From the NCBI GenBank assembly GCA_041639835.1, contig JBEQBL010000001.1:1-30979 (forward strand): a DNA stretch of 30,979 nt. Reading direction: 5' to 3'. The stretch comes from Salinarchaeum sp. (GTDB lineage Archaea > Halobacteriota > Halobacteria > Halobacteriales > Salinarchaeaceae). This document shows positions 1 to 20,569 of the stretch, one piece after another (the first letter of the stretch is position 1; every line of letters begins with the position of its first letter). The translations under genes and the position numbers were made by a program. The notes under the pieces are model-generated. The model saw only the letters and a list, made by a program, of their open reading frames with translations. It had not been told where the DNA came from and did no database searches.

Positions 1-107
1 TCGGTGATTTCCTCGGTAAATCGACCCTTGGCGTCCCGAGCACGATGGCGACACGCGCGCTTGCCACGACCACGATCATGACCGTGCCGCTGCTCGCGTT
101 TTGACAT
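1..107 (-). CDS. 5' part of a hypothetical protein running off the left edge (MSKREQRHGHDRGRGKRACRHRARDAKGRFTEEIT...), divergent from the feo operon
   Basis: Manual translation: ATG at 107-105, open to base 1. A TATA-like TTATAT (136-131 on the minus strand) lies about 24 nt upstream, typical of a leaderless haloarchaeal gene. Confidence 0.55.
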   Translation of the reverse strand, partial: MSKREQRHGHDRGRGKRACRHRARDAKGRFTEEIT

Positions 108-241
108 GTACTAGCGTTGCTCTGATGATGATATAACCCTTTTGCTAGTACGCTACTGGGTCGATTACCCGGGGGGCCCTTGCAGTATAATCCCCTTTCC
201 CGTGGATGACAGCCCCGTAACCTACGCCGATCATAATCTTT

Positions 242-257
242 TTTAGGCACACCAAAA
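242..257. promoter_or_regulatory. DtxR/MntR-family-like operator box 1 (TTTAGG-CACA-CCAAAA)
   Basis: Near-perfect TTAGG-N4-CCTAA palindrome (one mismatch) directly upstream of feoA. Confidence 0.55.
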
Positions 258-271
258 GATCATGCGACTGA

Positions 272-287
272 ATTAGGTGACCCTAAT
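272..287. promoter_or_regulatory. DtxR/MntR-family-like operator box 2 (ATTAGG-TGAC-CCTAAT)
   Basis: Perfect 6-bp inverted arms with a 4-nt spacer. It overlaps the probable feoA ATG and lies 30 bp from box 1. Confidence 0.65.
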
Positions 288-576
288 GCTGCTTAATGGA
301 CTTCTTTCGGCGGTAACTTCTAGTGGGGCCGATCAGCAACCGGTCCCTGACTGTCGACCGGCGACGGAGCTTCAGGTCGGCCAGTCCGGAACGGTTGCCC
401 AGATTGATGAGCATGTCCGTGACCGGGCCATTGCGCGCGGCATTCGTCCAGGGCGTACTCTTGAGGTCCAGACAAAACAGCCATTTGATGGCCCGGTTGT
501 TGTTTCTGTTGACCGGTCTGTCACCTCAATTAGTCGTCGCTGTGCCCGGGGCATCGAAATCACCGTTGACCGATGA
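286..576 (+). CDS. feoA: FeoA family ferrous iron transport protein
   Basis: FeoA-like core (RAIARGIRPGRTLEV...PFDGPVVVSV...ISRRCARGIEI), immediately upstream of the FeoB GTPase. ATG 286 is preferred over GTG 277. Confidence 0.85.
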   Translation: MLLNGLLSAVTSSGADQQPVPDCRPATELQVGQSGTVAQIDEHVRDRAIARGIRPGRTLEVQTKQPFDGPVVVSVDRSVTSISRRCARGIEITVDR

Positions 577-1112
577 CAGAGCCGTCAACGATATTACTTG
601 TCGGGCATCCAAATGTTGGGAAAAGCGTCCTGTTTAATCAACTGGCTGGGGCTTCGATTACGGAGTCAAACTACCCTGGGACGACAGTGGATTACACTGA
701 GGGGAAACTAACACTGGGCGATCGGTCATTGATGATCATCGACACGCCAGGAACGTTCTCGCTTGACGCCCGCGATCGAGCTGAGGAAGTTACCGTCGAG
801 CTGTTAGAAGCAACTTCGGATGCGCTTATCATTGGGGTCATCGACGCAACACGTATTGAACGGGGGCTGCATCTCCTCTTGGAACTTGTTGAGCAGGAAC
901 ATGACCTGCTTGTGGCGCTGAACATGTGGGATCAAGCCCTTCAGGATGGTATTGATATTGACCTTGACCGGTTAGAGCAGATTCTTGCTGTCCCAGTTGT
1001 CCCAACGGTTGCCACCGAGGGCCGCGGCATCGCCCAGTTGGAAAACCGCATTGACGAGGCGACAACACCCTCAATTGATGGAATCCAGAAACGCGCACAG
1101 CAGACATCATAA
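573..1112 (+). CDS. feoB: FeoB N-terminal GTPase domain (split FeoB, part 1)
   Basis: G1 GHPNVGKS, G2 NYPGTTV, G3 DTPG, G4 NMWD. ATGA overlap with feoA. Confidence 0.9.
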   Translation: MTEPSTILLVGHPNVGKSVLFNQLAGASITESNYPGTTVDYTEGKLTLGDRSLMIIDTPGTFSLDARDRAEEVTVELLEATSDALIIGVIDATRIERGLHLLLELVEQEHDLLVALNMWDQALQDGIDIDLDRLEQILAVPVVPTVATEGRGIAQLENRIDEATTPSIDGIQKRAQQTS

Positions 1113-1130
1113 TTACACGAAGTGACCGTC

Positions 1131-2366
1131 ATGAGCACTGATATTGATCCATCTACTCGCTGGGATCTCGTTGATGCCATTACGGATCAAGCCGTTAATT
1201 ATGAGCCATCCGATCCGACCATTGCTGATGAACTTGGGCGATTGATGATCGCCCCGTGGACCGGATTTCCATTTGCGATTGCTGTTCTCTATGGTATCTG
1301 GGGCGTGTTCACCACTGTGGCCGGCTTTCTCACTGATGGATACTTTGTCCCCCTATTCGATGAGTACTGGCTGCCCTGGCTTCAATCGTCGTTCCCAGGG
1401 GAAGGCACATGGCTGTACTTTATTCTTGTTGGTGATCCAGTGGCGACAAACAGCTTTGAGGCATTTGGGATGCTTACAAGCGGCCTGTTTGTTGCCGTTG
1501 GCGTTGTGATTCCGGCCCTACTGGCCTTGTACCTTATTTTGGCAGTGCTTGAGGATTCAGGCTATATTCCTCGGCTGGCGGTCTTACTGGATACGTTCTT
1601 TCACCGCATTGGGTTGCATGGATTTGCCGTCGTCCCGATGGTGCTGTCCTTTGGATGTAATGTCCCCGGCGTTGAGGCAACCCGATCGCTTGAAGGTGAA
1701 AAACAGCGACTAATCATGATGACACTGCTGTCGGTGTTCATTCCCTGTGGTGCGCAACTCGGGGTGATGCTGTCGTTGATTCCCCAGTATACCGGATTTA
1801 TTCTGCTTTACCTTATTGCCGGCTTCTTTGTCTTTGGGGCAGTTATCAACCGACTTGTGCCGGGTTCTGCGCCGGAATTTATTGTTGATATTCCACCCCT
1901 TCGACGCCCTCGGGCTGGCCCGTTGTTAACCCGCCTTCACACCCGGATTCGTGGCTTTCTGACCACCGGCGTTCCATTTGTGCTCGCTGGTGTCGGGGTT
2001 ATTAACGTGCTGTATGTGACCGATCTGATGCGCTCGCTTGCAGCAAGCGTCCAACCGGTTTTAACAACCTGGTTTGGTGTGCCAGGAGATACCGTCCCGG
2101 CCCTGGTGGCCGGATTTATGCGGAAGGATCTCGCTGTCGCTCAATTGAGTGCTATTGAGTTGACAGCGTATGAGACGGTCATGTCGGTTATTATGATCAG
2201 CATCTATTTCCCCTGTGTTGCTACCTTCGCTATGCTGATCAAGGAAGGTCGTGAAACCGGAAGCGTTATTCGAGTACTTGGCGCCAGTCTTGCAACACTT
2301 GTTGTTGCACTGTTTGTCTGGGGCGGCTTATTCCATCTCTTTGGCATTGTGACGGGGGTGGCATAG
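1131..2366 (+). CDS. feoB: FeoB membrane (gate) domain (split FeoB, part 2)
   Basis: LEDSGYIPRLA, GCNVPG and YFPCVAT FeoB membrane motifs, many hydrophobic segments. Alternative start GTG 1122. Confidence 0.9.
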   Translation: MSTDIDPSTRWDLVDAITDQAVNYEPSDPTIADELGRLMIAPWTGFPFAIAVLYGIWGVFTTVAGFLTDGYFVPLFDEYWLPWLQSSFPGEGTWLYFILVGDPVATNSFEAFGMLTSGLFVAVGVVIPALLALYLILAVLEDSGYIPRLAVLLDTFFHRIGLHGFAVVPMVLSFGCNVPGVEATRSLEGEKQRLIMMTLLSVFIPCGAQLGVMLSLIPQYTGFILLYLIAGFFVFGAVINRLVPGSAPEFIVDIPPLRRPRAGPLLTRLHTRIRGFLTTGVPFVLAGVGVINVLYVTDLMRSLAASVQPVLTTWFGVPGDTVPALVAGFMRKDLAVAQLSAIELTAYETVMSVIMISIYFPCVATFAMLIKEGRETGSVIRVLGASLATLVVALFVWGGLFHLFGIVTGVA

Positions 2367-2825
2367 ATGCGACTGACACCGATTTACTGGTTTGTTATTG
2401 GACTTGTCTTCCTGCTTGTTGGCGGTATTGAACTTGCAGTCGGCGTTCTTGGAACCGAGTGGACATTCGCTGGGATATCCGTTTCGGGTACATATCTCCC
2501 ATGGCGTGGGGTGATTGTTGCTGCAGCTGGTGCGATCTATGTCCGTGGCGTGCTTGCTGATCTACAGCAGACGCGTGCACAGGCAGTTATTCTCTTGGCA
2601 AGTCTAATGCTATGGATCGTGGCCGGACATGCACTCCTGGCGACAATCCTTGGTACCCTTCCTGGTGGTGAGGATGTCTGGATTGCAAGTGCAAGTCAGT
2701 TGCTTGTGGCACTTGGACCGCCGTATCCGCCTTCGCTTGCATTGCTCCCGGTAACGCTTCCGGCGCTTTTGTACCCGGATATTGATTGGCCAGTAGTTGG
2801 ATCCTTATCGGTGAAACAATCATGA
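2367..2825 (+). CDS. Hypothetical membrane protein in the feo operon (about 4 TM helices)
   Basis: 152-aa hydrophobic ORF abutting feoB, with an ATGA overlap to the next gene. Confidence 0.75.
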   Translation: MRLTPIYWFVIGLVFLLVGGIELAVGVLGTEWTFAGISVSGTYLPWRGVIVAAAGAIYVRGVLADLQQTRAQAVILLASLMLWIVAGHALLATILGTLPGGEDVWIASASQLLVALGPPYPPSLALLPVTLPALLYPDIDWPVVGSLSVKQS

Positions 2826-3112
2826 GCATGTATCAAGAGACATTAGCGCTAATTGCACGGAACCGGTCGGTGCCGGAGATTGCGGCAGAACTTGATACCC
2901 GCGAGGATGCTGTTCGTGGAATGATCCAGTCAATGGTTCGTGCCGGGCATCTCCAGGAAATAGGGTGTGAGACAACGGGGTGTTCGGCTTGTCCGATGAG
3001 CGAGGCCTGTGGGATGGATAATGATCATGCTATCAGCTATCTTCTTACCGCAGATGGACAGGCCGTGCTTGAGACCGCTGAGGGGCCTCCTGATCTTGAT
3101 CTCACAGCATGA
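2822..3112 (+). CDS. feoC: FeoC-like winged-helix protein with Cys cluster
   Basis: HTH-like N-terminus (SVPEIAAEL...VRGMIQSMVRAGHL) followed by CETTGCSACPMSEAC, last gene of the feo operon. Confidence 0.65.
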   Translation: MSMYQETLALIARNRSVPEIAAELDTREDAVRGMIQSMVRAGHLQEIGCETTGCSACPMSEACGMDNDHAISYLLTADGQAVLETAEGPPDLDLTA

Positions 3113-3220
3113 CGCGTACACAGCCGCGTGCGCTTAGCGGCCGTAAGCTAGCCATACCAACAGGGAACAGAGTATGTGGGGTGGCGATCAATTCAAGTCT
3201 CTGTCGTTGTAATGACGTAT

Positions 3221-3430
3221 ATGGCTCAAATCGAAGGGATAATCAAGGAGCGATACACCAGCGACGAAATCAGTGAAACACTCAGCGAGCTTGAGGAGGC
3301 TGGTCTGACAGATCTTGACGATCGTGAGGCCGTTGAACGGTTAGTCAAGGAGTTTTATTTCCGTGGCCTCGTCCATGGCCGTGCCGAGGAGGACAAAGTG
3401 CAGGCTGTTCGTGAAGAGATTGGATACTGA
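3221..3430 (+). CDS. Small acidic hypothetical protein (69 aa; alternative start 3212)
   Basis: Strongly acidic, haloarchaeal-type composition. Confidence 0.6.
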   Translation: MAQIEGIIKERYTSDEISETLSELEEAGLTDLDDREAVERLVKEFYFRGLVHGRAEEDKVQAVREEIGY

Positions 3431-3459
3431 TACGACAGGCAACGCCGAGTGTCGGGTGC

Positions 3460-4077
3460 TTACTCGAATGGGTCCTGTGCGGTTCCCTGACCAGCGTCCC
3501 GCGAGCGGAGGTACGCGAGAACAACCACAGCCACAAAGACCACAAGTACTACGCCACCGAGCAATCCGACTGGGATTCCTGACTCGGCATCCGCAGAAAC
3601 AGTGACAGTCTCCTGTCCAACAACTGGGGACGTTGTCTCCGCTGTGCTGATATCCCCCGTGATCTGGAGTTGATCACCACTAGACATCTCCGGTGACAGT
3701 GTCACAGTATACTGGACGGTGAGTGTCTCCCCCTCTTCGATAGGTGACTCGTCAAACTGGATTGTCAAGCCCTGTGTTGTTGCAGACTGTGCAGTTGGAA
3801 ATTCCTGAGTTCCATCAACATTGACGGCCTGTAAACTCGCACTTTCAACTGCTGGCGTGAACGTTTCTTCAAGCACCAGTGGTCCGGATAACGTCTCATT
3901 GACAGTTGTTTCGACTGTGACAGCAACCGTTCCATTTGGCGGTGCCTGATTAGGCAGCGTTCGGTCAGATGACACAACCGGTTGTGCGAGGGCCCCCCCG
4001 GTAATACCGCCGACGCTAACCAGCACGACACCAAGGAGAAGAACCAACTGTGCCCTCCGTATGTCCCAATCCCCCAT
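3460..4077 (-). CDS. Secreted, C-terminally membrane-anchored surface protein
   Basis: N-terminal basic plus hydrophobic signal (RRAQLVLLLGVVLVSVGG...ALA), Thr/Val-rich beta-type domain, and a C-terminal TM helix followed by RSR. Confidence 0.75.
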   Translation of the reverse strand: MGDWDIRRAQLVLLLGVVLVSVGGITGGALAQPVVSSDRTLPNQAPPNGTVAVTVETTVNETLSGPLVLEETFTPAVESASLQAVNVDGTQEFPTAQSATTQGLTIQFDESPIEEGETLTVQYTVTLSPEMSSGDQLQITGDISTAETTSPVVGQETVTVSADAESGIPVGLLGGVVLVVFVAVVVLAYLRSRDAGQGTAQDPFE

Positions 4078-4446
4078 GCTATGTACTATGACTGCTATAT
4101 GATTTCACATTACATGAATCCCCTGGCCGCCTTCGACACTAATGTATACTTCAACGTATGCATAAAATATATTAATTATGTCATAAACAGAGGATATTGG
4201 AACAGACATATGAACAAAAGAAAGTTGTATAATAATAAAAACTAATTAAGAAAACAACATCAGCGCACATTCCGGTGATAATTAATCTAAAAATGTGTAT
4301 ATCGCTGCTCGCAGTAAAGTGACTATTAGAAAAACAACTATTTTATTATACGATATCTATCTTTAAAAACGCGACGTGGCTTATCGGGTCCCAGTATTCA
4401 TGATCATCCGAACGCGTTATGTAAATCGGCTGGATCACCTTGTGGT

Positions 4447-5040
4447 ATGAGTTCGGATGAGCCAGCGTCGAACAAGCTCGGGCGGTTGATTCAGCGGCAT
4501 GGTCTTTCGGACTTACGAGAAGAGCTTATTACCCGCTGGACGGCGCCCCAAGACGAGCGATCAAGCCTTCGGGACCTGGCTGACTATGTTAATCAACAGT
4601 TGCTTGGAGCGCATCTTGAGGCTGCCAACGTTACTGTAACCGATTATGACCTTGTCCAGCGGTACCACCGGTTGACCAGTGATGAGGTGCCAACAAGCGA
4701 TCGGACTCGCGAACGTCGTACACTTGAACGGCAGGGAGTTGATGTTGATCAGTTATTTGATGAATTTGTTTCACACCAGACTGTTCATACCTACCTGACC
4801 GATGACTGTGATGTCGAGTATACAACTGCTAACACTAGTGCCCCAAGTGAGACCGTCGGTCAGTTGAAAGGCCGTGTCAGTGCTGTGACCGACTCGATTG
4901 TTGACCAACTGGAGGAAACCCCTCCCGAATACGACGTATTTGTCGATATAACAGTCTACTGTCATGGCTGTGAGCGCCGGTATACGATTGAAGAACTTAT
5001 TGAGGCTGATGGGTGTGCATGTGCTAGTCCCGCTGAGTGA
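4447..5040 (+). CDS. RdfA-family haloarchaeal protein
   Basis: KLGRLI..HGL...EELITRWT...RSSLRDLADY and FVSHQTVHTYL segments plus a C-terminal CxxC...CxC match the RdfA family as I recall it. Orthology to RdfA itself is not established. Confidence 0.7.
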   Translation: MSSDEPASNKLGRLIQRHGLSDLREELITRWTAPQDERSSLRDLADYVNQQLLGAHLEAANVTVTDYDLVQRYHRLTSDEVPTSDRTRERRTLERQGVDVDQLFDEFVSHQTVHTYLTDDCDVEYTTANTSAPSETVGQLKGRVSAVTDSIVDQLEETPPEYDVFVDITVYCHGCERRYTIEELIEADGCACASPAE

Positions 5041-5085
5041 CAATCGTCGAAAGCTATTTTATATAGAGGCATGGTTTGTTATACC

Positions 5086-5439
5086 ATGTCAGGCATACCG
5101 CAAACCGAAGCGTTAGATGTCCTTGCGGATTCACACGCTCGGTGTATTCTCCGCCGGACATCACAGACACCGATGTCGGCACAGGAGCTGGCTGCCGTCT
5201 GCGAGATGTCTGAGACGACTATTTATCGCCGACTTAACCAACTGCAGAATCTGGGGTTTCTGACCGAACATGTCGAACTTGACCGCTCTGGGGACCATCA
5301 GCGACGGTATGAGACGGCCATTGACTATATCGGGGTTTCCTTTACTGATGGAGAGCTTGCCGTTACCATTGAGCCAAGCGACGAGTCATCTGACCATCTC
5401 TCCACAACCACCGGTGGTCGCCATGGGGGTCGGTCCTGA
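5086..5439 (+). CDS. ArsR-like winged HTH transcriptional regulator
   Basis: LDVLADSHAR.IL...PMSAQELA..CEMSETTIYRRL pattern. TTTTATATA (5057-5065) lies about 25 nt before ATG 5086. Confidence 0.8.
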   Translation: MSGIPQTEALDVLADSHARCILRRTSQTPMSAQELAAVCEMSETTIYRRLNQLQNLGFLTEHVELDRSGDHQRRYETAIDYIGVSFTDGELAVTIEPSDESSDHLSTTTGGRHGGRS

Positions 5440-5663
5440 GCGCCGTTCCTGTGATTATTATTTATCCCCGTGCTGATTACCGCTTGTAAGCTTCCTCGTT
5501 CCCCCGTTGGCCATCGTCCTATGCCTATCCCAGCAGTACGATTCAAGCCAATGCACCTCGGAGTTTTGTAACTGTAAGCTCTCACTGAGCGACAGCCAGA
5601 CTGTATGGCCGGCTATGGCTTTCGGGACTCCCTCTCAAAACGACTCGTAGCAGGTGTGTGCAG

Positions 5664-5682
5664 GTTCCCCACGTTCGGGAAC
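5664..5682. promoter_or_regulatory. 19-bp palindromic operator A (GTTCCCC-ACGTT-CGGGAAC), 11 nt upstream of TATA-like TTTATGTA (5694-5701)
   Basis: Inverted repeat. A near-identical copy with identical spacing to a TATA box occurs at 9721. Confidence 0.65.
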
Positions 5683-5942
5683 TTATTCATATCTTTATGT
5701 AATTAATTGGTAGTATCATATGCTGTCCCCCGCTTATCGCTGGGGACGAGGTGCATCTCCATGTATGCAGAGAGCCCTATGTATCGACGTATCGACTGTC
5801 TCCACACGACATCATTGTTGATCCCGTTGGTAGCCGGTATGTTACGTATCGGTCTGATAGCACACACGCATGCTGATGCGGCAGTACAATCGCACTGCGA
5901 TCCGTGTGGTCATCAATCCGCTACCACTTCGGTGATTGGTTC

Positions 5943-6944
5943 ATGACCTGTGACTGTCACTCTACGCTCCCAGGCTCCTCGCGTCGTCGGGCCATCCAGG
6001 TTATCGGTGTTGGCACTCTTACTGGATTGGCTGGCTGTGGTACCCTGCTCGGAGAGAGTGTGGATCTTCGGATTTCCGGCGGGGTAGGCCCCCTACCAAT
6101 GGTGGAGGTCTGGGCAAGCCAATTTGAGGCGGACACCGGAACCGTGATTGACATCTCAGGCGGCGGTACCGGTGTTGGTGTGTCTGATCTACTTAACGGG
6201 CAGGTTGATCTTGCAATGATGGGTCGGGAGCCTGAACCAGAAGAGCGTGAGCAGGGCCTAGTGGCTGTCGCAATGCTTCGGGATACCGTTGTTGGAACCA
6301 TTCACCCTGATAATCCCGTTCGCGACGCCATCAGCCAGCAGGGACTCTCTCGACGAGATCTTGAAGCAATCTTTACAAAAGACGTCACAACATGGGGGGC
6401 TGTCGTTGATGCCGACAGTGATGCCGATATTATTGTCTATGGTCGCGCCGATGCCTCAGCGGCATACAAACAGTGGGGTGATTTTCTTGGTGGACCAAAC
6501 GACGCCTATACCGAAAGTGAACTTGAGAGCCTCTCCGATGGTAACTACGATGGTGACCAGGCCGTTGCTGAGGCTGTCGGCCGTGAGCCCAACGCAATCG
6601 CTTTTAACAATGTCAACTACGTCTGGGATTTCGAAACCGGCGAACTCTCCGGTAACGTTCGTCCTGTTCCGCTTGATCGTAATGATAATGATGTGATTGA
6701 TGAAGACGAAGACGTGTACGACTCTCGTGATGTCTTTCTCAATGCCGTTGAGGCTGGGATATACCCTGCTCCGCCTGCCCGAGAGATGTTTTTAGCTGCC
6801 GAGGAGCAGTTTACCGGTGCCGCGTATGAGTTTGTCCACTGGGTACTACACGAGGGCCAACAGATGGTCCGTGACAATGGATATGTTCCCCTGGAACCGG
6901 ATCGGCTGGAAGCGCAGCGTGAGAAACTTGCGGCTCATTCATAA
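5943..6944 (+). CDS. pstS: PstS-like oxyanion ABC transporter substrate-binding lipoprotein (Tat)
   Basis: SRRRAI twin-arginine signal plus LAGC lipobox. DISGGGTGVG, VDLAMMGRE and GYVPL segments are of PstS type, and pstCAB follow. Confidence 0.8.
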   Translation: MTCDCHSTLPGSSRRRAIQVIGVGTLTGLAGCGTLLGESVDLRISGGVGPLPMVEVWASQFEADTGTVIDISGGGTGVGVSDLLNGQVDLAMMGREPEPEEREQGLVAVAMLRDTVVGTIHPDNPVRDAISQQGLSRRDLEAIFTKDVTTWGAVVDADSDADIIVYGRADASAAYKQWGDFLGGPNDAYTESELESLSDGNYDGDQAVAEAVGREPNAIAFNNVNYVWDFETGELSGNVRPVPLDRNDNDVIDEDEDVYDSRDVFLNAVEAGIYPAPPAREMFLAAEEQFTGAAYEFVHWVLHEGQQMVRDNGYVPLEPDRLEAQREKLAAHS

Positions 6945-6946
6945 CC

Positions 6947-7885
6947 ATGGCCATGGAACCAAGTCAGTCTCAGCGGGACGTATCTGATGGACTACCACGA
7001 CGGGTTCTTATTGAGCAGGTGAGCAACCAGTGGTTTCGGCTCGCCGGCTATTTTGCAATTGTACTGTTTGTGGCGATTGTACTGACACTGCTGGCTCACT
7101 CATCTGATATTCTTATGTCATTTTCGGTGACCGATCTACTCCTCTCAACCAACTGGGACCCGGCACAGGATGCGTTTGGCTTTCTTCCGGCAGTCATTGG
7201 CACGTTATACGTTACCGGCATCGCGATGCTTCTGGGAACTCCGCTGGCCCTTCTTACCGGCATCTATCTCGCAGAGATGGCCAACGGCCGTCTCAAGGCC
7301 GTAACCGCCGCGTTTATCGATGTTTTGGCAGCCGTTCCTGGCGTTGTGTTTGGTATTGTTGGTCTACTTATTGTCGTGCCGATAATCAGTGATTCTCTTG
7401 CGCCGGCGGTCGGTGCTAGCAGTACTGGACTGAGTATCTTGGCCGCCGGGCTTGTGATGGCAATTGTCGTCACCCCATTTATGATTTCGCTGATCGTTGA
7501 ATCGATTGATGCATTACCGCGTGAACTGCGTGATGCGACCCTCTCGTTAGGGACGACACGCTGGGAAATGATCAAGCATGTGTTGTTGCGTGCTGCTGGC
7601 CCGGGTATTTTTTCCGCGATTTTACTGGGCTTTGGCCGGGTCTTTGGGGCGACTATTGTCCCGACAATGCTTATTGGAAGCCAGATGCAGATTCCTGTTA
7701 CGCCGTTTGATCCCGGTCAGACACTAACCTCAACGATTGTCAATGACTTTGGTGAGCTCATGTCCTTACCCCTGACACAGTCGGCACTGATCTTCGTTGG
7801 GTTGGTCCTCATGCTTGTTGTCGGTATGTTCAATCTCGTAGCGATGGTATTGCGCCGCCGGCTCAAACGGAGGTGGCAGTACTAA
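6947..7885 (+). CDS. pstC: PstC-like ABC permease
   Basis: FGFLPAVIGT, LAAVPGVVFG and the EAA-loop region (ALP.ELRDATLSLGTTRWE). Confidence 0.88.
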   Translation: MAMEPSQSQRDVSDGLPRRVLIEQVSNQWFRLAGYFAIVLFVAIVLTLLAHSSDILMSFSVTDLLLSTNWDPAQDAFGFLPAVIGTLYVTGIAMLLGTPLALLTGIYLAEMANGRLKAVTAAFIDVLAAVPGVVFGIVGLLIVVPIISDSLAPAVGASSTGLSILAAGLVMAIVVTPFMISLIVESIDALPRELRDATLSLGTTRWEMIKHVLLRAAGPGIFSAILLGFGRVFGATIVPTMLIGSQMQIPVTPFDPGQTLTSTIVNDFGELMSLPLTQSALIFVGLVLMLVVGMFNLVAMVLRRRLKRRWQY

Positions 7886-8745
7886 TGGACCGCTACCGCG
7901 AACAGCAGTTGATTGCTGTACTGGCCCGTTGGGGGACTGCTGTTGTCGTGACAGCACTGCTAGTGGTTATTGCAGCGACAATCTATCGCGGCGGGACCGT
8001 CCTGCTGTCAGATCCGCTAATACCGCTTACACCCCCCGGTAGCAGCTACATGCTTGATGGCTCCGGTGGCTTTCTGCACGCGGTTGTCGGCAGTGTGCTT
8101 ATTGTTGTCCCGGCTACGGGGGTTGCAACGATTTTAGCTCTCTCGACAGCGGTGTATCTTCAAAGTGACTACTCCAGCCAGCGTTTTGGCGAGTATGTCA
8201 ATATGTTCTTGAACATTCTCTGGGGTACCCCCCCAATCGTCTATGGTGTCTTTGTGCTCACAGCAATGATTGCTATTGGAAGCCGTGCAAGTATGTTAGC
8301 TGGAATCGTTGCAATCGGTATCTTCGAGTATCCGATCATTACCCGGTATGCTGATGAAGCATTACAAGCCGTTCCTGCGGCGGTCAAAACCTCAAGCTAC
8401 GGACTTGGTGCTACACGATTTGAAACTGCCTGGATAACGGTACGATCGGCACTGCCAGGTATTATAGCTGGAGTCATTATGGGTTTTGCTCGTGGTATCG
8501 GCGATGCTGCAACGGTGTTGTTCACCGCCGGTGGCAGCACACGCATGCCAGGCGGTCTGTTTGAACCGGCAACAACACTCCCAATCCTGATTTTTGATCA
8601 GGCGAACTCACATAGTGCCACGGTCAGGGCTCATGCTTATGCGGCGGCCTTTGTGCTGATTATTACCGTCTTGATCCTGATCGGCTGTTCAAAGGTACTA
8701 GCAGGCCGATGTGCCCGATTTACACCAGGAGGACAATGCAAATGA
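7885..8745 (+). CDS. pstA: PstA-like ABC permease
   Basis: LWGTPPIVYG, ALQAVP...SYGLGATRFE, ARGIGDAA. TAATG overlap with a GGAGGTG SD. Confidence 0.88.
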   Translation: MDRYREQQLIAVLARWGTAVVVTALLVVIAATIYRGGTVLLSDPLIPLTPPGSSYMLDGSGGFLHAVVGSVLIVVPATGVATILALSTAVYLQSDYSSQRFGEYVNMFLNILWGTPPIVYGVFVLTAMIAIGSRASMLAGIVAIGIFEYPIITRYADEALQAVPAAVKTSSYGLGATRFETAWITVRSALPGIIAGVIMGFARGIGDAATVLFTAGGSTRMPGGLFEPATTLPILIFDQANSHSATVRAHAYAAAFVLIITVLILIGCSKVLAGRCARFTPGGQCK

Positions 8746-9545
8746 CACAGAACACACAGCCACTCCTGCGGACTGACGATCTTGTTGTCAGATATACTGG
8801 TGACGATGGGGTACAGGCACTCAATAGCGTCTCGGTAAGTTTCAACGAGCATCGACTCACGGCACTACTTGGTCCTTCCGGGTCCGGAAAATCAACGCTC
8901 TTGAAATCGTTAAACCGACTTCATGCACCTCAGCCAAATGTTGAGATTGATGGGGAAGTGTATCTACGTGGGGAACCGCTATATGATACGGACCGTCCAC
9001 TCCCGGAGATCCGACGACGGATTGGTTATGTGCCTCAGACTCCAACCCCGTTGCCAATGTCAATCTATGATAACGTCGCCTATGGCGTGAAACTTCATCA
9101 TGATCCTTCGCCCAGTGAACTGGATACTATCGTTGAACAGCGACTCCGAGAAGTTAATCTCTGGACAGAAGTCAATGACCGGCTTGAGACACCTGGCGCG
9201 GAGTTGTCGACCGGACAGATTCAGCGCCTCTGTCTGGCTCGCTCACTGGCTGTTGAGCCGGATGTGTTGCTCTGCGATGAGGTTACCTCTTCTCTTGATC
9301 CGGTTTCCTCAGAGACCGTTGAGGAGACGCTCATGGCGCTCTGTGATGAGTACACGATCATTATGATCACCCACAGTATGCAGCAGGCACAACGACTAGC
9401 AGACGATGTCATTTTCCTCTATCTTGGCGATGTGCTTGAGACAACAGATGCGGCGTCGTTTTTCGAGGGTCCCGAGGCCAAGCGAGCACAACGGTTCGTT
9501 GGCACTACCGGGCAACAGTCCTCACACGCCTCAACGGTCGATTAA
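8742..9545 (+). CDS. pstB: PstB-like ABC ATPase
   Basis: Walker A GPSGSGKS, signature LSTGQIQR, Walker B LLCDE, ITHS H-loop. ATGA overlap and GGAGG SD. Confidence 0.9.
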   Translation: MTQNTQPLLRTDDLVVRYTGDDGVQALNSVSVSFNEHRLTALLGPSGSGKSTLLKSLNRLHAPQPNVEIDGEVYLRGEPLYDTDRPLPEIRRRIGYVPQTPTPLPMSIYDNVAYGVKLHHDPSPSELDTIVEQRLREVNLWTEVNDRLETPGAELSTGQIQRLCLARSLAVEPDVLLCDEVTSSLDPVSSETVEETLMALCDEYTIIMITHSMQQAQRLADDVIFLYLGDVLETTDAASFFEGPEAKRAQRFVGTTGQQSSHASTVD

Positions 9546-9720
9546 CGGGGGGTTGTGTCTGCTGTTCTGAGGGTTATAGAAGGTGCGAGGCGAAAACCCA
9601 TCCCCAGCCGTGGGCAGCTCAATCTCTCACCAGCATACTCAGCTTCGTACTGGTCACGAGACGTCTTGCCGGCAGTTTTGGAGCCTTGTGTTGTATTCAC
9701 TGCATTGCAAATATGTATCA

Positions 9721-9739
9721 GTTCCCCACAGATGGGAAC
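9721..9739. promoter_or_regulatory. 19-bp palindromic operator B (GTTCCCC-ACAGA-TGGGAAC), 11 nt upstream of TATA-like TTTACATT (9751-9758)
   Basis: Same motif and same spacing as the site at 5664. Confidence 0.65.
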
Positions 9740-9780
9740 GGCATTCAACGTTTACATTAGAAAGCAGTGTATAGTACGCT

Positions 9781-9799
9781 GTTTCCCGGCAGGGGAAAC
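9781..9799. promoter_or_regulatory. Second 19-bp palindrome (GTTTCCC-GGCAG-GGGAAAC) at the predicted transcription start of the dsrEFH-like operon
   Basis: Perfect 7-bp arms (8 with the flanking T/A), exactly 60 bp downstream of operator B. Confidence 0.5.
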
Positions 9800-9813
9800 A
9801 TGGAGGCGTGAGT

Positions 9814-10188
9814 ATGGAGCTGTTAATATACCTTACCGAACCACCACATTCCAGCAGCAAACCGGTATCGGCACTCAAACTCGGCGAACAGGCACACGAC
9901 CGCGGTCATGAGGTCAAATATTTTCTTATGGATGATGGCGTCTACTGTATCAACGGTGACGTTGCAGTCGGTCGCTCGGGTGTTGATGTGCCCAGTCGAT
10001 TTCGGTCACTCATTGCGGATGGGGTAGAGGTAGCCGCCTGTGAGACGGCAGCTGATGAACGTGGCGTCAGCAGTCGGGAGCGAATGATTTCCGATGTTGA
10101 TATTGAGGGTGTCCAGTCACGAAGCCAATACAAGTGCGCACAGATGATCGATGACTGTGACAAAGTCGTCTCGTTTATTGGTCGATAA
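9814..10188 (+). CDS. dsrE: DsrE/TusD-like sulfurtransferase
   Basis: TEPPH, FLMDDGVY and CETAADERG (conserved active-site Cys position). GGAGG SD upstream. Confidence 0.8.
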   Translation: MELLIYLTEPPHSSSKPVSALKLGEQAHDRGHEVKYFLMDDGVYCINGDVAVGRSGVDVPSRFRSLIADGVEVAACETAADERGVSSRERMISDVDIEGVQSRSQYKCAQMIDDCDKVVSFIGR

Positions 10189-10190
10189 GT

Positions 10191-10544
10191 ATGGCGCAGG
10201 TGACGTATCTCATCTCCGAACCCCCATATGGAACCGAAACGGCTAGTGAAGCGATGCGATCGGCTGTCGGGCAAACTGTTGAGAATGATATTACCGTTAT
10301 TTTCGTCGGCAGTGGCGTTGAGTCAGCGCGTGCGCTCCATGCTGGTCATGAGGCCATTGCTGACACCGCTGGTGTAAAGGAACTTACTGAATACGTCAGT
10401 ACACTCGCTGATCTTGGATCGATTTACTATGAGCAACGCGCCCTGCGACAACGCGCGATTGATCCACCCGGGATTGGAACGCCAGCAACAGTCGATGAAA
10501 TTAATCGGATCGTAACCCAATCAAAGGCGACAATTACCTTCTAA
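10191..10544 (+). CDS. dsrF: DsrF/TusC-like protein
   Basis: SEPPYGTE.A.EAMR N-terminus, between dsrE-like and dsrH-like genes. Confidence 0.7.
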   Translation: MAQVTYLISEPPYGTETASEAMRSAVGQTVENDITVIFVGSGVESARALHAGHEAIADTAGVKELTEYVSTLADLGSIYYEQRALRQRAIDPPGIGTPATVDEINRIVTQSKATITF

Positions 10545-10546
10545 CC

Positions 10547-10783
10547 ATGCTATATACAATTAAAGATCCCCATGTGGACGCTATTGTTCCGGAATTGATT
10601 GATGCCACGGACACCGTCCTGTTGATGAACGACGGCGTCTTAATCGAGCGATCCTTCGCCGGTGATGTCTATGCCATTGAGGAAGACTGCCGTCTCCGTG
10701 GTATCACGCAGCGACCAACGGTCGATTATACTGGAGCCGTTGATCTCATTGCCGATGCTGAGGCCGTAGTCAACTGGCGCTAG
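10547..10783 (+). CDS. dsrH: DsrH/TusB-like protein
   Basis: VLLMNDGV, VYAIEEDCRLRG and VDYTGAVDLI motifs, 78 aa. Confidence 0.75.
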   Translation: MLYTIKDPHVDAIVPELIDATDTVLLMNDGVLIERSFAGDVYAIEEDCRLRGITQRPTVDYTGAVDLIADAEAVVNWR

Positions 10784-10952
10784 ACTCACTGTTGGTCTGC
10801 TCTTCGGTTTTTGTGATCTCCAGCAGGTTGGCATCCTGTAACTAGTCCCCTGCTTTCAAGCAAAGACTGTCGACATACCAGTTGCTAGCATGTGATTTAG
10901 CGGTCCCCGGGTGCGGAATTAAGCCTCCCAGTGAACAGGTTCCACGCGGAGG

Positions 10953-13900
10953 TTAGTCGTTGTCAGTGTGGGCAGTTCGAGTTTCGGTATCCCATCGCTG
11001 TGGCCGTCCAACTGGTCCATCAACGTACCAGGCATCATCTTCACCTGGATCGGTTGTCGGCTTAATTGGGCGTTTGAGCCATTTCGGCCGTCGAAGTCCG
11101 TTTGGCCCGGGCGCTGGATTGGTCTTTTCAAGCCATTCGCGGTAGATCTCAAAGGACTGGTCGGTGTCAACAAAGACATCGCCATACGCGTCATCTTCCC
11201 GGGCCGGGGTCACCGTTACCTGCTGGTGCCAGCAGTGCATTCCGGAGATTGGATCTGGATGTGGAGCGTGGGTCAGGTTCTGCGGAACGCCGCCGCTTTC
11301 CCACCACACGCGTTCACTATCGGGATCGGTCTTACTTTCAAACGGCGTGATGCCCTCTGTCTGTCGGATGCCCCATTTATGCCCGTCACTCGTCAAGTCA
11401 ACGGAGACTTTTCCGTATGGATCGCCTCCCTCTTCAATTTCTGAGTCAGGGTCCTCATCACGGTCAATTTTCCACTGACCCATATGATGAGACATTGCCA
11501 CAATTCCGGGCTTGATTGATTCGGTGACCCATACTTCATTTACGAAATACCCAATTTCCGTCTCGACACGACAGAGATTGCCTGTGTCTAATCCAAGTCG
11601 CTTGGCGTCTTTTGTGTGAATCCACACCGGATTGTTATGTGAAATCTCCTCAAGATATTTTGCATTTGAGGACCGTGAGTGAATGTGTGTTGGCAACCGG
11701 AACGTCGGCACAAGAACCATCTCACCGTTCTCGTAATCGATATTTTCCGGATGGACGTGCGATTTAATATAGTGTGGCAGTGTATACTGCTCATCCTCCC
11801 AGCCCCACTCGGCCATGGTTTTGGAGTAAAACTGCTGTTTACCTGTTGGGGTTGGGAATCCACGTTTTGGTTCGCCGTCAACCATAACCCCAAGTACATC
11901 TGAGCCATCGGACTCGGAGTGCAACCGATTCTGCTGTGTTGTTCCCCCATCCTGTAATGCTGTGTCAACAGTCGGATCACCTCGAGTTGTGACTGAACGA
12001 TCTGTCCGCCGACGGATGGTCCCATACTCGTCGACAACGACATCCTCATCATCCAGAATTGATGGATCAAGCGACTCCTCATGGAGCGTGTAATCGTTCT
12101 TGGAGGCTTCGAAAGCCCCGTATCGTTTCATATACTCAAGTGGCTCCATGCCGGCATCAGCAGCGACCGCCTGGAGTTGCTCATCGTGCTCAAAGATGTA
12201 CCGGTAGTACTCATCAACTGACATTCGTCGTGGCGGTTCATCATCTTCCTGATATGGACTCTCGAAGTGCTCCCGAATGCCAAGACTACCATCCTCATCA
12301 AGCCGCCACGATAACTCAAGCCAGAATTCGTCCTCTTCCCAGACCTCGCCAGGATTAACCTCATACGTGTGATCGATATCCTCGCCTTCGCGTTCAGCAT
12401 ATCGACGATGGACCGGCTGTCGGAAGGTCACCCAGGTCCCAGCATGCGTTTCTGAACTTTGAAGATCGTGTCGTTCGGGACTATGGCCCATCGGCAGGAC
12501 ATAATCAGCGAAGTATGCTGTTTCGTTCCACGTCGGCGTCAACGCCACATGCAAGCCGACTTTGTCGGGGTCTTGGAGCACCTCAATCCACGAGAATCCA
12601 TCAGGGTATGTGTATACTGGATTAAACACACGCGTGAAATACACCGAAAGTTTTCCACGTCCTTCTTTGAGGAAATACGGCAGCAGCTGGCTCATCTCAT
12701 AGTGTGCAAACGGATATTCATCAGGCAGTTGCAGTTGATCCCAGAGTTTCTGTTGTGGCGGTTCACGCGGGACCTCGGGGTCGTACTTATGCCAGCTGTT
12801 GGGGGCAGTTCCCCCCTTTGTGCCCACGCTACCGGTAAGAACGGACAGGAAGTGTAACGTTCGAGAGACCTGCCAGCCGCCTTCATTCCCGGACGCAGCT
12901 GACCGCCAGATATGACTGGCGTATCTGGGTGCCGCATGGCCGATCTTTTTACCAACCTTCCGAATCGTTGACGCCTCGACACCACTTTCGGCGGCGGCAT
13001 ACTCCGGGGTAAACGTGCTGTAAATATCTTCCTGCAGGATATCGATATATGCCTCAAGATCGTGGCCAATATCAGGATATTCCTCGTCAAGGAACTGCTC
13101 CCAGTTTGTCCACTGGCGGATAAACTCAGCGTCATACAGCCCTTCATCAAGTAGCACCTTTGCCATGGCTAACAGCACAGCCGCCTCACTGCCAGGTTGG
13201 GTTGGCATCCAGTAATCAGCGACAGCAGCCGTATTCGAGAGTCGGGGATCCATTACTGCTAGTTCACCTCCCTCGTCCATGCTATCTAAGATCCGCTGGG
13301 CGTGTGGATTGAAGTAATGGCCCGACTCAAGTTGCGCTGACAACAGCAAAATAAAATCGGCATTGCTATAATCAGCACTTGGGCGATCATACTTATGCCA
13401 AAGCGCATAGCCAGCACGGGCCCCGGAACTACAAATATTGGTGTGTGAATTATGTCCATCAATGCCCCATCCATTGATTGTTCGGTCCATTGACCCATCA
13501 TAACCGGGACGACCAACATGATACGTGATCTCATTCTCACGTCCATCCTGAATTGTCTCGCGCATCTCTCCGGCGATTGCGTTTAATGCCTCATCCCAGG
13601 ACACACGTGTCCACTCACCACTCCCACGGGGTCCATCACGTTTGAGTGGGTATTTGATCCGCTTGGGGTCGTTGATTTGATTGATTGTAGCGACCCCTTT
13701 CGCACAGTTGCGTCCTCGACTTCCGGGGTGCTCGGGATTGCCCTCCAGTTTTTGAATCTCACCACTATCCTTGTCAATATATGCTAGTAATCCACAGCCA
13801 GCCTCACAGTTGAAACAGGCTGTAGGCACAACCGAGTATTCCGTCGGATCACCCGTCGCATCGTACTCAACCCAATGGTCCCACGCTGTTGGATCCGGAT

Positions 13901-14036
13901 ATGCATCCAGCGCACTCGCTGTGGTGTCGCCGTCGGTTCGACGCTGTTGGGTCGCTGTTTGGTCGGTGCGATTCGAGAGGATACCAAGACGTTCGGCAAG
14001 CCGTTCGATCCGGCTTGGTTCAAATTTGTTTCCCAT
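10953..14036 (-). CDS. Molybdopterin (DMSO-reductase family) oxidoreductase catalytic subunit, Psr/Phs/Sre/Soe-like, no Tat signal
   Basis: N-terminal 4Fe-4S motif CFNCEAGC...CAKG, SWDEAL, candidate Mo-ligand Cys in SHTNICSS, DPRLSNTA, and a C-terminal dinucleotide-binding domain (VWIHTKDAKRLGL). Confidence 0.9.
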   Translation of the reverse strand: MGNKFEPSRIERLAERLGILSNRTDQTATQQRRTDGDTTASALDAYPDPTAWDHWVEYDATGDPTEYSVVPTACFNCEAGCGLLAYIDKDSGEIQKLEGNPEHPGSRGRNCAKGVATINQINDPKRIKYPLKRDGPRGSGEWTRVSWDEALNAIAGEMRETIQDGRENEITYHVGRPGYDGSMDRTINGWGIDGHNSHTNICSSGARAGYALWHKYDRPSADYSNADFILLLSAQLESGHYFNPHAQRILDSMDEGGELAVMDPRLSNTAAVADYWMPTQPGSEAAVLLAMAKVLLDEGLYDAEFIRQWTNWEQFLDEEYPDIGHDLEAYIDILQEDIYSTFTPEYAAAESGVEASTIRKVGKKIGHAAPRYASHIWRSAASGNEGGWQVSRTLHFLSVLTGSVGTKGGTAPNSWHKYDPEVPREPPQQKLWDQLQLPDEYPFAHYEMSQLLPYFLKEGRGKLSVYFTRVFNPVYTYPDGFSWIEVLQDPDKVGLHVALTPTWNETAYFADYVLPMGHSPERHDLQSSETHAGTWVTFRQPVHRRYAEREGEDIDHTYEVNPGEVWEEDEFWLELSWRLDEDGSLGIREHFESPYQEDDEPPRRMSVDEYYRYIFEHDEQLQAVAADAGMEPLEYMKRYGAFEASKNDYTLHEESLDPSILDDEDVVVDEYGTIRRRTDRSVTTRGDPTVDTALQDGGTTQQNRLHSESDGSDVLGVMVDGEPKRGFPTPTGKQQFYSKTMAEWGWEDEQYTLPHYIKSHVHPENIDYENGEMVLVPTFRLPTHIHSRSSNAKYLEEISHNNPVWIHTKDAKRLGLDTGNLCRVETEIGYFVNEVWVTESIKPGIVAMSHHMGQWKIDRDEDPDSEIEEGGDPYGKVSVDLTSDGHKWGIRQTEGITPFESKTDPDSERVWWESGGVPQNLTHAPHPDPISGMHCWHQQVTVTPAREDDAYGDVFVDTDQSFEIYREWLEKTNPAPGPNGLRRPKWLKRPIKPTTDPGEDDAWYVDGPVGRPQRWDTETRTAHTDND

Positions 14037-14038
14037 AG

Positions 14039-15796
14039 TTAGGCCATGGAGATGGTTTGGGGGGCAATGATCAGACTATACTCGTAGGCGAATAGACCGA
14101 GTAACGCAAACACGCCGGCAGCAGCCACGGCGATCGCTGCACCGGTTCCGACCAGCATGACAATCGGCAAGACCATGCCGACAAGGACACCACCGCCCCA
14201 GAAGGCGGTTCGAAATCGACCACGAAGGATTCGCTGTGCAGCCTCCTCAGCATCCTCGGTCTGATGTGCTCCGGTCAACTCGGGCACGGCAAAGGCAGCA
14301 TGGCCAACTACCGCCCCAGCAAGCACAATCCGTGCTGGACCGGTGACTTCGGTAACGCCAAGACTGCCTGCAATGGCCAGCAGCGTCGCTCCGGCGAGTA
14401 CCGCTTGGACAAACAGATGGGCGGCCATCCCTGGGCTTTGCCAGAGATCACGGCCCTTGGCCTGTCCAAGCAGAAAGGCGGTATAGACGGCAGTTGCGGT
14501 TCCGAGACTGGCGCCACCGCCGAGGACTACCGGATGCGTGAGCGACTCAACGCCAAGTAGCCAGCCCAAGACAATTGCTCCTAAGGCGGCGCCGTAGGCA
14601 GAAATGACATATGCGCCTTTCGCGAGCCACGAACTCCAGTTTGGTCGGGTCATCACCCAGTGGAATCGAGTTGGCTTGGTGAGCTTCCCAATGAGCAAAC
14701 CACCGGTAATCCCCAAAAAGCCCAGCCCAACCAACGCACTGGCTCCAAGAAGCGTCTGATTGGGGGCAATACCAAGTGCTGACTCAGGAGCCACTAAGCC
14801 AATAAGCATCAACAACGCCGGGACAATCAACGCACCGGTCGCGATTGACTTTGTCCAGGTATACGTGTATACCTCCCAGCCCCAGCTTCTGGCATGATCC
14901 TGTCCAATATCGTAGACTCGCTCGGCCTCTGTGTGTAATAACTCATAGGCCCGCTTTGTAGCTGACTGTGTTGTTGATGTCGTCTCCTGCTCCGGGACCC
15001 CAGCTGTTGTGGCCCCGCCGGATCGCTGGTACCCACCATCTGAGCGGACTGGGTCGCTTGCTGCTGTTTCGCCGGTATCCGGAGTAACCGTTCCAAGATC
15101 CACATCGGAGTCAGCAAGTGACTCCGCAGCAGCATCCAAGTCAAAGTCGTCGACTGCTGGCCCATGTGTTTCGACCCGTGAGGGGGCGTCACTCCACAAA
15201 TAATGGTCCTGTCGTGCCGTTGATCCCGGAATTAGACTGGCTTCATCACCGTTGATGTATGAGAGACTAGGGTCAGTGCCCTTCTCCGGTTTTCGAACCT
15301 GTAGTTCATGCTCGCTCATGACCGTCGAAATTGTTGACTCCGGATCATCCATATCACCGGCGATGATCGCATCCTCCGGACACGCATTGACACATGCCGG
15401 TTGACGCCCCGAGTCGACACGGTGAGCGCAGTAATTGCACTTCGCTGCCGTCTCGGTCTCCGGATCGATATGGATGGAGTCGTACGGACAGGCCTGCATG
15501 CAGGATTTACATCCAATGCAGCGGTCCGGATCAAAGTCGACAATGCCATCCTCACGTTCAAACAGCGCGTTGACCGGGCAGATCTCGGTACACGGTGAAT
15601 CATTACAGTGATTACACCGGATGACCGAAAATTTCCGACTTGTGTGTGGGTAGTCTCCCTTTTCGATATACTTGACCCATGTCTTGTTCGTGCCCAGTGC
15701 ATCGTCATGCTCGGCTTTACAGGCGACGGTGCAGGAGTGACAGCCGATACACCTGCGGTTATCGATGACAAACCCGTAGTTTGTGATGCTCCACAC
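14039..15796 (-). CDS. Fused 4x[4Fe-4S] electron-transfer subunit plus NrfD/PsrC membrane anchor
   Basis: Four ferredoxin motifs (CIGCHSC, CNHCNDSPC, CIGCKSC, CNYC), a long acidic linker, then a hydrophobic NrfD domain starting WGWEVYTYTWTKSIATG. The start codon is ambiguous (see findings). Confidence 0.88.
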   Translation of the reverse strand: MWSITNYGFVIDNRRCIGCHSCTVACKAEHDDALGTNKTWVKYIEKGDYPHTSRKFSVIRCNHCNDSPCTEICPVNALFEREDGIVDFDPDRCIGCKSCMQACPYDSIHIDPETETAAKCNYCAHRVDSGRQPACVNACPEDAIIAGDMDDPESTISTVMSEHELQVRKPEKGTDPSLSYINGDEASLIPGSTARQDHYLWSDAPSRVETHGPAVDDFDLDAAAESLADSDVDLGTVTPDTGETAASDPVRSDGGYQRSGGATTAGVPEQETTSTTQSATKRAYELLHTEAERVYDIGQDHARSWGWEVYTYTWTKSIATGALIVPALLMLIGLVAPESALGIAPNQTLLGASALVGLGFLGITGGLLIGKLTKPTRFHWVMTRPNWSSWLAKGAYVISAYGAALGAIVLGWLLGVESLTHPVVLGGGASLGTATAVYTAFLLGQAKGRDLWQSPGMAAHLFVQAVLAGATLLAIAGSLGVTEVTGPARIVLAGAVVGHAAFAVPELTGAHQTEDAEEAAQRILRGRFRTAFWGGGVLVGMVLPIVMLVGTGAAIAVAAAGVFALLGLFAYEYSLIIAPQTISMA

Positions 15797-16013
15797 CTCC
15801 GTTTGGGGGTATGGACCAAATATTTCTATACTATCACTTAATGGTTAGGTGGGCGGAAAGAGCGACCTCAAGTTTCACCCTGTCCACAAGTCAGGTAACA
15901 ACAGGACGCTGGTGCTCGCCGGTTATCGTCGTTCTTTACAACACTAATGCTGTAAGCAACAACAACCGACACGGCGAGTAACTTTAGCCGCTTGGGATGT
16001 GGTAATAGTGTGT

Positions 16014-16478
16014 ATGGCTCATTCACCAGACCTGTGCCCGGAGGCCAGACACCTCTTTGACGGCTCCCCACAGGTAGTCCGGGTCGCACTGGCGATTGAA
16101 ACAACGATACACGATGTTTCCCCAACCGGTGATGAGGAACTTGCATTAGCACTTGGTCGTGTCCGAGTCGATGGGGCCCCACCGCCATCGGAGGTGCCAA
16201 CATTTGTGTCCGTAACTGATAGGACAATCACAACCGATAATCCACCGTACCTTCGAGGAGAATGGACTGTTGATCCTGGCGAGACACTGCAGGTGACGGG
16301 ACAGCTGGATTCCGAACTGGAGTTGTTAATCGACCCTCCCGTCACAGTCTCGTTTAGTGGCGCTCCATCGTCAGTTATCGAAACGATTGAACGCACACTT
16401 GCAGACATCTACCGCACTCGCGGACGATATCTTGAGCAGATCGATGCCGATGTTGCCACTCCACGCGTGGACGACTAA
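16014..16478 (+). CDS. Hypothetical protein (154 aa)
   Basis: Acidic ORF filling the gap between the Mo-enzyme and shdr operons; family not recognised. Confidence 0.6.
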   Translation: MAHSPDLCPEARHLFDGSPQVVRVALAIETTIHDVSPTGDEELALALGRVRVDGAPPPSEVPTFVSVTDRTITTDNPPYLRGEWTVDPGETLQVTGQLDSELELLIDPPVTVSFSGAPSSVIETIERTLADIYRTRGRYLEQIDADVATPRVDD

Positions 16479-16765: not shown

Positions 16766-16767
16766 GG

Positions 16768-17235: not shown

Positions 17236-17241
17236 CGTTGA

Positions 17242-20518: not shown

Positions 20519-20569
20519 AGTTTTGTGGATATCCTGATTGGATGGGTGGTTACTGTGCGATACATCGAG

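Follow-up and report, generated by a model that had tools for sequence, protein, structure and literature searches.

A 30,979-nucleotide (nt) stretch of Salinarchaeum DNA (the window, meaning the whole stretch analyzed) contains the palindromic box GTTCCCCAC-N4-GGGAAC twice, as read from the sequence at 5664 and 9721, ahead of a pst-like ATP-binding cassette (ABC) transporter operon and of the dsrEFH operon. These two boxes are probably the sites of one dimeric winged-helix regulator that would co-control both operons, and the most likely candidate is the regulator encoded in the same cassette. Judged separately, co-regulation of the two operons by a single factor is very likely, and the chances that the adjacent regulator is that factor are about even. 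The window is one whole contig of a metagenome-assembled genome (MAG) of 1.98 Mb (294 contigs, 82.6% complete, 55% GC), labeled G000; its congeners are G001–G004, making five MAGs in the genus, and G005 is a complete genome. The elements of the two promoters are as follows.

5664–5682, + strand: box 1, GTTCCCCACGTTCGGGAAC, a 6+7+6 palindrome (sequence; window, genome and survey scans).
5694–5701, + strand: TATA box TTTATGTA, 11 nt 3′ of box 1 (sequence).
5719–5726, + strand: TATGCTGT, initiator-like element common to both promoters, at the expected transcription start.
5725–5747, + strand: second inverted repeat of the pst promoter, GTCCCCcGC-TTATC-GCtGGGGAC (GTCCCC-N11-GGGGAC).
9721–9739, + strand: box 2, GTTCCCCACAGATGGGAAC (sequence; window, genome and survey scans).
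9751–9758, + strand: TATA box TTTACATT, 11 nt 3′ of box 2 (sequence).
9775–9782, + strand: TACGCTGT, initiator-like element common to both promoters.
9781–9799, + strand: second inverted repeat of the dsrE promoter, GTTTCCC-GGCAG-GGGAAAC, directly 5′ of GGAGG at 9802.

Reading both promoters bears out the duplicated architecture of box, TATA, TA(T/C)GCTGT and second repeat that an earlier note on this DNA had described, including the spacing of exactly 11 nt between box and TTTA (5694 and 9751). The distance from TATA to TA(T/C)GCTGT, given there as about 30 nt, is 24–25 nt when counted from the first T of TATA. Predicted transcription starts were placed by the usual archaeal TATA-to-start spacing. 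Within the window, the two boxes are the only zero-mismatch matches to the 15 specified positions, and allowing up to three mismatches yields 5 matches, compared with 0.95 expected from shuffles, none of which attained 5. Boxes 1 and 2 are also the sole perfect copies across the 1.98-Mb assembly, and the genome has just seven perfect inverted repeats of the form G-T(1–3)-C(3–5) (arms of at least 6, loops of 3–13), four of which are the repeats of these two promoters. A chance origin of the paired boxes is excluded. The 4-nt core spacers are unrelated between the promoters and the 11-nt box-to-TATA spacers are identical at 2 of 11 positions, so the shared elements reflect constraint rather than recent duplication of the DNA. 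A third near-site in this genome (C49:554, TTCCC-N7-GGGAA) lacks a convincing TATA box in both directions.

The box recurs across the order. We surveyed 400 Halobacteriales genomes besides the window's own for GTTCCC-N7-GGGAAC followed by N10–12 and TTTA, using the same pattern reversed as the control. The box with its TATA occurs in 23 of the 400 and the reversed control in none, against a chance expectation of about one match estimated from base composition. Bias at the unspecified positions is expected for a real site, and among 25 sites position 7 is A in 16, G in 6, C in 3 and T in none, while position 13 is T in 16 and C in 9. Both window boxes have C at position 7, a minority state (two of the three cases are the window's own), and they agree with the class in being perfect GTTCCC-N7-GGGAAC palindromes 11 nt before TTTA. 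Most of the surveyed sites lie 23–27 nt ahead of an ATG, a hallmark of leaderless haloarchaeal promoters.

Genes 3′ of the surveyed boxes include narG (3 sites), NosL (2, plus a third found later), halocyanin, UspA (2), a thiamine pyrophosphate (TPP)-binding protein resembling the PFOR beta subunit (2), a small membrane open reading frame (ORF) followed by DsbD_2 (3), a radical-SAM enzyme (locus L037 and a second genus), a P-type ATPase, an SRPBCC protein and three kinds of regulator gene. The complete genome G099 has five box sites within 18 kb around narG (C1:3174176–3192735), classified by their TATA-plus-ORF geometry, which precede a ModA-like (SBP_bac_11) binding protein, an Fe-S protein, narG, a halocyanin and an Mrp/NBP35 Fe-S carrier. 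The nar promoter on the Natronococcus occultus plasmid has no box, which is thus not universal at nar promoters. The two window boxes are promoter-coupled sites of one class, for which a single regulator of both operons is the most economical account, and to that extent the co-control proposed in the earlier note stands; the regulon, however, is not specific to this locus. Nor does the label of a sulfur- or anion-responsive regulon fit, since in other places the box stands before genes for nitrate respiration, copper proteins, Fe-S proteins and stress; these neighbors suggest a signal tied to oxygen or redox and respiration, not to sulfur or phosphate.

A candidate family of binders emerges from the same survey. 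Two of the 23 sites, one from Halobacterium bonnevillei and one from Haloarcula sediminis, precede small winged-helix genes of a single family whose Halobacterium salinarum member is VNG_2414H, annotated merely as a helix-turn-helix (HTH) protein. In Halobacterium, genes of this family have one to three boxes upstream (GTTC(C/T)C and G(G/A)GAAC variants allowed), and the proximal one lies 10–11 nt before TTAA/TTTA in promoters that were not selected for that spacing. Among 80 family loci, mostly from Haloarculaceae, 20 have a box (up to one mismatch) within 200 nt upstream, compared with 1 of 80 in control DNA. Box counts per genome follow the presence of the family. Given as box/reversed control with up to one mismatch allowed, they are 10/1 (G006), 7/3 (G007), 5/1 (G008), 18/3 (G021), 13/3 (G028), 19/1 (G029) and 22/2 (G034) in genomes that have an orthologue and were chosen regardless of the box, and 3/3 (G005), 5/4 (G016), 4/2 (G017) and 3/1, 4/5, 4/1 and 5/2 (G001–G004) in genomes that have none. 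Five genomes picked for a box-plus-TATA site all have an orthologue, with 24–31 boxes against 1–5 control matches. Across the 19 other genomes examined, the box exceeds the control about 7-fold in those that have the family, compared with about 1.6-fold in those that do not.

The standard reading of boxes in the family's own promoters is that VNG_2414H-family regulators autoregulate; the alternative is that a different factor controls these genes. Paralogue groups of the same winged-helix superfamily (L062–L090) have palindromes of their own 5′ of TATA, at about −62 from the start codons of their leaderless genes, for example TTTGCTG-N3-CAGCAAA and TTTCCG-N3-CGGAAA (GATTTGCTGAGTCAGCAAATC and TTTCCGGCCCGGAAA). 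Since each group has its own upstream palindrome, a palindrome just 5′ of TATA appears to be a trait of the superfamily, and these groups would be candidate autoregulated regulators with distinct operators. The GTTCCC box shares this geometry, which speaks in favor of the window's regulator as its binder.

In the window, a single 5.9-kb segment carries the gene of the candidate binder together with both boxes.

4447–5040: rdfA.
5041–10952: 5.9-kb segment with the regulator, both boxes, the pst-like operon and dsrEFH, missing at the same rdfA/Mo-oxidoreductase junction in G001 and G003.
5057–5065, + strand: TATA-like TTTTATATA of the regulator gene, with the ATG 29 nt later (leaderless type) and no box upstream.
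5086–5439, + strand: 117-residue winged-helix regulator (HTH_20/ArsR-like), a divergent VNG_2414H-family homologue and candidate box binder.

The regulator aligns with the VNG_2414H family over its full length (HTH_20 and C-terminal domain; hhalign 98.3%, 30% identity over 96 columns), and it is the family's best match in the window's genome (33% identity). A true VNG_2414H orthologue (above 45% identity, with the C-terminal LETLW helix) is absent from G000–G004 and from G005. As the genus has no true orthologue and this homologue shares the segment of the boxes, the product of 5086–5439 is the most likely candidate for the binder. Promoter-type boxes in the genus were found only on the segment carrying this regulator, and none in the congeners, where the segment is missing in G001 and G003 and the convergent Mo-oxidoreductase gene is reached about 30 nt after rdfA (in G001, on C14 after the rdfA stop). 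The adjacent ArsR-like protein proposed in the earlier note is accordingly retained as the best candidate, as a family homologue that shares the indel with both boxes. The argument then made from its two Cys residues carries little weight: homologues do not conserve Cys20, and the 19-residue spacing of Cys20 and Cys39 is unlike that of SoxR/SqrR. Cys39 occupies a conserved position of the wider family.

The GC content of the cassette shows no sign of foreign origin and equals that of the flanks, so that the difference between the congeners can be read as an insertion or as a deletion of the 5.9-kb segment. The contigs found to encode the regulator belong to the same population at 99.9% identity and gave no independent copy of the cassette; likewise, a word-indexed search for close orthologues of the regulator returned only the regulator itself. 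Perfect box matches in G001 and G003 were set aside as not regulatory, because they fall inside a conserved coding stretch, MTYDQIEVPSGGEP... (beginning MTYDQIEVP), which probably encodes isocitrate dehydrogenase. A perfect match in G002 also looks coding and was rejected too.

Several observations weigh against the cassette's own regulator, or against the wider box class as we describe it. The protein is just 27–33% identical to the VNG_2414H family. It has Ala in place of the invariant Cys of the DxxCR motif, with a Cys shifted by two residues, and it lacks the C-terminal DERLETLWxEVxKET helix. By similarity it groups with other paralogue groups (38–46% identity). Its own promoter (5000–5086) has no box, and its 29 closest relatives, at the same 38–46% identity, have no GTTCCC box within 1.5 kb. 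The 10–12-nt spacing of box and TATA was fixed by the survey pattern and is hence no unbiased measurement, and many of the supporting genomes are related to one another and do not count as independent. None of the 23 other box promoters shows the second repeat, and its spacer differs between the two window promoters, the arms being similar and the spacer of the pst copy longer than that of the dsrE copy. Finally, the assembly is 82.6% complete, and an alternative box binder could sit in the unassembled part.

It is possible, if unlikely, that the boxes are genuine and that their binder is such a factor from the unassembled 17%, or another winged-helix paralogue, with the adjacent gene controlling something else. 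Two more paralogues are encoded on contigs C30 and C40, and the adjacent protein could be regarded as a distant paralogue of the box-linked family whose gene lacks an autoregulatory box and whose nearest relatives lack the box as well. Such a binder would nevertheless have to be reconciled with the lack of a true orthologue in all five genomes of the genus and in the complete G005, and with the confinement of the genus's promoter-type boxes to the segment that carries this regulator. We favor the cassette's own regulator on these grounds.

We consider it very unlikely that the repeats are nucleic-acid structures only (terminators or RNA hairpins) or what remains of a duplicated promoter, without a regulator in common. 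Each of the four repeats is able to fold, and the two downstream ones would fall in 5′ leaders. Boxes 1 and 2, however, are upstream of TATA with no T runs after them, and they keep the same register in 23 other genomes; the spacers between shared elements are unrelated, Rfam covariance models gave no match between 5400 and 10000 at E up to 1, and the predicted fold of the 230-nt pst leader does not stand out from those of shuffled sequences (z −1.0).

Binding by the MarR-like protein of 26668–27054, which would tie the cassette to the sHdr island, is less probable still. This winged-helix protein, named in the earlier note as an alternative binder, is encoded within the sulfur-oxidation island, but its gene travels with that island and not with the box: orthologues of 67–68% identity are present in G001 and G003, both of which lack the cassette and promoter-type boxes, and there is no box near 26668. 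An identity of the box with the usual phosphate-regulon element of pst operons can be dismissed, for although one copy is 5′ of a Pst-family transporter, 0 of 25 orthologous pst-like operons and not even the paralogue on contig C184 have it, and in other genomes it is found 5′ of nar, nos, halocyanin, Usp and regulator genes.

Taking the cassette's own regulator as the binder, a mechanism can be outlined from the arrangement of the sites. Boxes 1 and 2 belong to an order-wide haloarchaeal box, GTTCCC(A/G)-N5-(T/C)GGGAAC, 10–12 nt 5′ of TATA (about −59 to −41), which in other genera marks anaerobic-respiration and cofactor-supply genes and the promoters of VNG_2414H-family genes themselves. Here it would be bound by the divergent homologue encoded at 5086–5439, a dimeric winged-helix factor. 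Sites just upstream of the B recognition element (BRE) and TATA are the position of archaeal activators; Ptr2, the upstream activating sequence of GvpE, and SurR and TrmBL1 in their activating mode are examples. In both window promoters the box ends 4–5 nt before the BRE, and because it abuts BRE/TATA from upstream, activation through recruitment of transcription factor B (TFB) and TATA-binding protein (TBP) is suggested, a sign of regulation that we infer at even odds. The likeness to those activators lies in this position, and a second repeat at the start site would fit a dual activator/repressor; the protein families and motifs are unrelated.

In both promoters the second repeats begin 26–27 nt downstream of TTTA and would lie over the initial 20-odd bases of the transcript. 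The one in the dsrE promoter matches the box with 2 mismatches and is likewise 19 nt long. As 5′ hairpins the two repeats fold at −15 kcal/mol (z −2.5) in the pst promoter and −16.6 kcal/mol (z −3.2) in the dsrE promoter. They may be a second operator, acting in repression or looping, or a 5′ RNA element; in the proposed mechanism, they could serve as a lower-affinity operator for repression or as a hairpin in the mRNA. A sequence elsewhere in the genome, GTTTCCCGGTGCTGGGAAAC at C42:5552–5571, is closely similar to the dsrE-promoter repeat GTTTCCCGGCAGGGGAAAC. Most of the gap of about 220 nt between the predicted start near 5722 and the ATG of the PstS-like gene at 5943 is occupied by a 61-codon ORF (MYAESPMY..., 5761–5946, + strand), which has no Pfam match and is not called in the public assembly; the region may be a long leader or encode a small protein.

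The operons downstream of the two boxes encode the following proteins.

5943–6944, + strand: PstS-like lipoprotein binding protein with a twin-arginine translocation (Tat) signal, below the PstS model thresholds.
6947–7885, + strand: PstC-type permease (TIGR02138, 222.8 bits, above the cut-off).
7873–8745, + strand: PstA-type permease, under its model cut-off.
8709–9545, + strand: PstB-type ATPase, under its model cut-off.
9814–10188, + strand: DsrE/TusD-like protein, with the active-site Cys motif AACETAADERG kept.
10191–10544, + strand: DsrF/TusC-like protein.
10547–10783, + strand: DsrH/TusB-like protein.

The PstS-like protein lacks the Ser/Thr residues of the phosphate-binding motifs, with GGVGPLP against GSTSVGP and RADASAA against REDGSGT of solved PstS. 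Since these residues are replaced, it is possible that the transporter carries an oxyanion other than phosphate. A PF03601 gene (YeiH-type, putative sulfate exporter family) is directly 5′ of the orthologous pst-like operon in 16 of 23 loci, mostly of Natrialbaceae. A second pst-like binding-protein gene in the window's genome (C184:3062–4015, 61% identity) has no box and no match in any of the four congeners. Word-indexed searches for close relatives of DsrE returned only DsrE itself, and a DsrE pattern scan was empty.

On its downstream side the cassette faces a convergent gene for a Mo oxidoreductase with a fused Fe-S/NrfD subunit; no box is present in the promoter of that gene (15797–16140, minus strand). 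The box before the ModA-like oxyanion-binding protein in G099 parallels the arrangement here, a box-controlled oxyanion transporter beside a Mo enzyme. Beyond the Mo oxidoreductase, a sulfur-oxidation island (16768–26028 and 29588–30289) has sHdr-like genes (CCG, 4Fe-4S proteins and an HdrA-like flavoprotein), a lipoate-protein ligase and a DsrE_2 protein. The parts of the island that were compared, which lie within 1–20000, are common to G001 and G003 at 72–79% nucleotide identity, unlike the cassette.

Among the closest known systems is the denitrification palindrome of Haloferax, CGAAYATDKTYG, which is upstream of TATA in nar, nir, nor and nos promoters and has been attributed to Bat/NarO-type HTH_10 proteins (PMC10062603, PMC11218638). 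Both are short palindromes 5′ of TATA in an anaerobic regulon, and the binder is not proven in that system either, but its sequence and half-site spacing differ from those of the GTTCCC box, and the GTTCCC-N7-GGGAAC box is not described in the denitrification-palindrome papers (PMC10062603, PMC11218638). By eye, neither window promoter has a CGAA-N4-TTCG-like palindrome between box and TATA; no mismatch-tolerant scan was made. The denitrification palindrome CGAACATGTTCG adjoins the GTTCCC-N7-GGGAAC box in three narG promoters (L038–L040, about 20 nt 5′ of the box) and in one Fe-S gene promoter (L221), which suggests that two regulators may act on one promoter there.

The sulfane-sulfur-sensing repressors sHdrR, SoxR, SqrR and BigR are ArsR-type proteins encoded beside sulfur-oxidation genes, with sensing cysteines (Cys50/Cys116) about 66 residues apart (PMC10451225, PMC12423496). 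The window regulator resembles them as a small ArsR-like winged-helix gene next to sulfur-oxidation and relay genes, which would control a transporter together with sulfur-transfer genes. It differs in that its two Cys are 19 residues apart and one is not conserved, in that it scores below the cut-off of the ArsR/SmtB model NF033788 (26 against 55; HTH_5, 19.5 against 22), and in that its C terminus aligns throughout with the VNG_2414H C-terminal domain rather than with an ArsR-type helix in the sequence alignment. Those proteins are repressors, whereas the position of the site here suggests activation. In a sequence-profile comparison of the regulator family with solved structures, Pyrococcus Phr (PDB 2p4w) and PH1932 (1uly) rank among the nearest matches (E 2.8e-4 and 1.3e-3). 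Phr is likewise an archaeal winged-helix protein with a C-terminal dimerization part that binds a palindrome at a promoter; the similarity is weak and restricted to the HTH, and Phr is a repressor that acts over the transcription start.

Literature searches for the box motif and for VNG2414H found no description of either. The box class and its link to the uncharacterized VNG_2414H family appear to be new, while an operator with its regulon is a known kind of system. Tentatively, the box and the VNG_2414H family may define an undescribed Halobacteriales-wide regulon for anaerobic respiration (nar, nos, halocyanin) and for Mo, Fe-S and oxyanion supply. For the control of haloarchaeal anaerobic respiration, the literature consulted points only to NarO/DmsR-type proteins and one palindrome, and it reports that nar promoters need a separate, unidentified control (PMC10062603). 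If our reading is true, the undescribed regulon could correspond to the control of nar promoters that the Haloferax work calls ‘distinct, unknown’, and the second conserved box brings with it a concrete, genetically tractable candidate binder in VNG_2414H of Halobacterium salinarum. In the uncultured archaeon of the window, the diverged regulator and two box promoters would form a self-contained module linking an oxyanion importer and the DsrEFH relay to the sulfur-oxidation island. The prediction is joint switching of the Pst-derived transporter, whose substrate is doubtful, and the DsrEFH relay beside sHdr and a Mo enzyme, and such co-switching would help in guessing the cargo of the transporter and the wiring of the sulfur-oxidation island.

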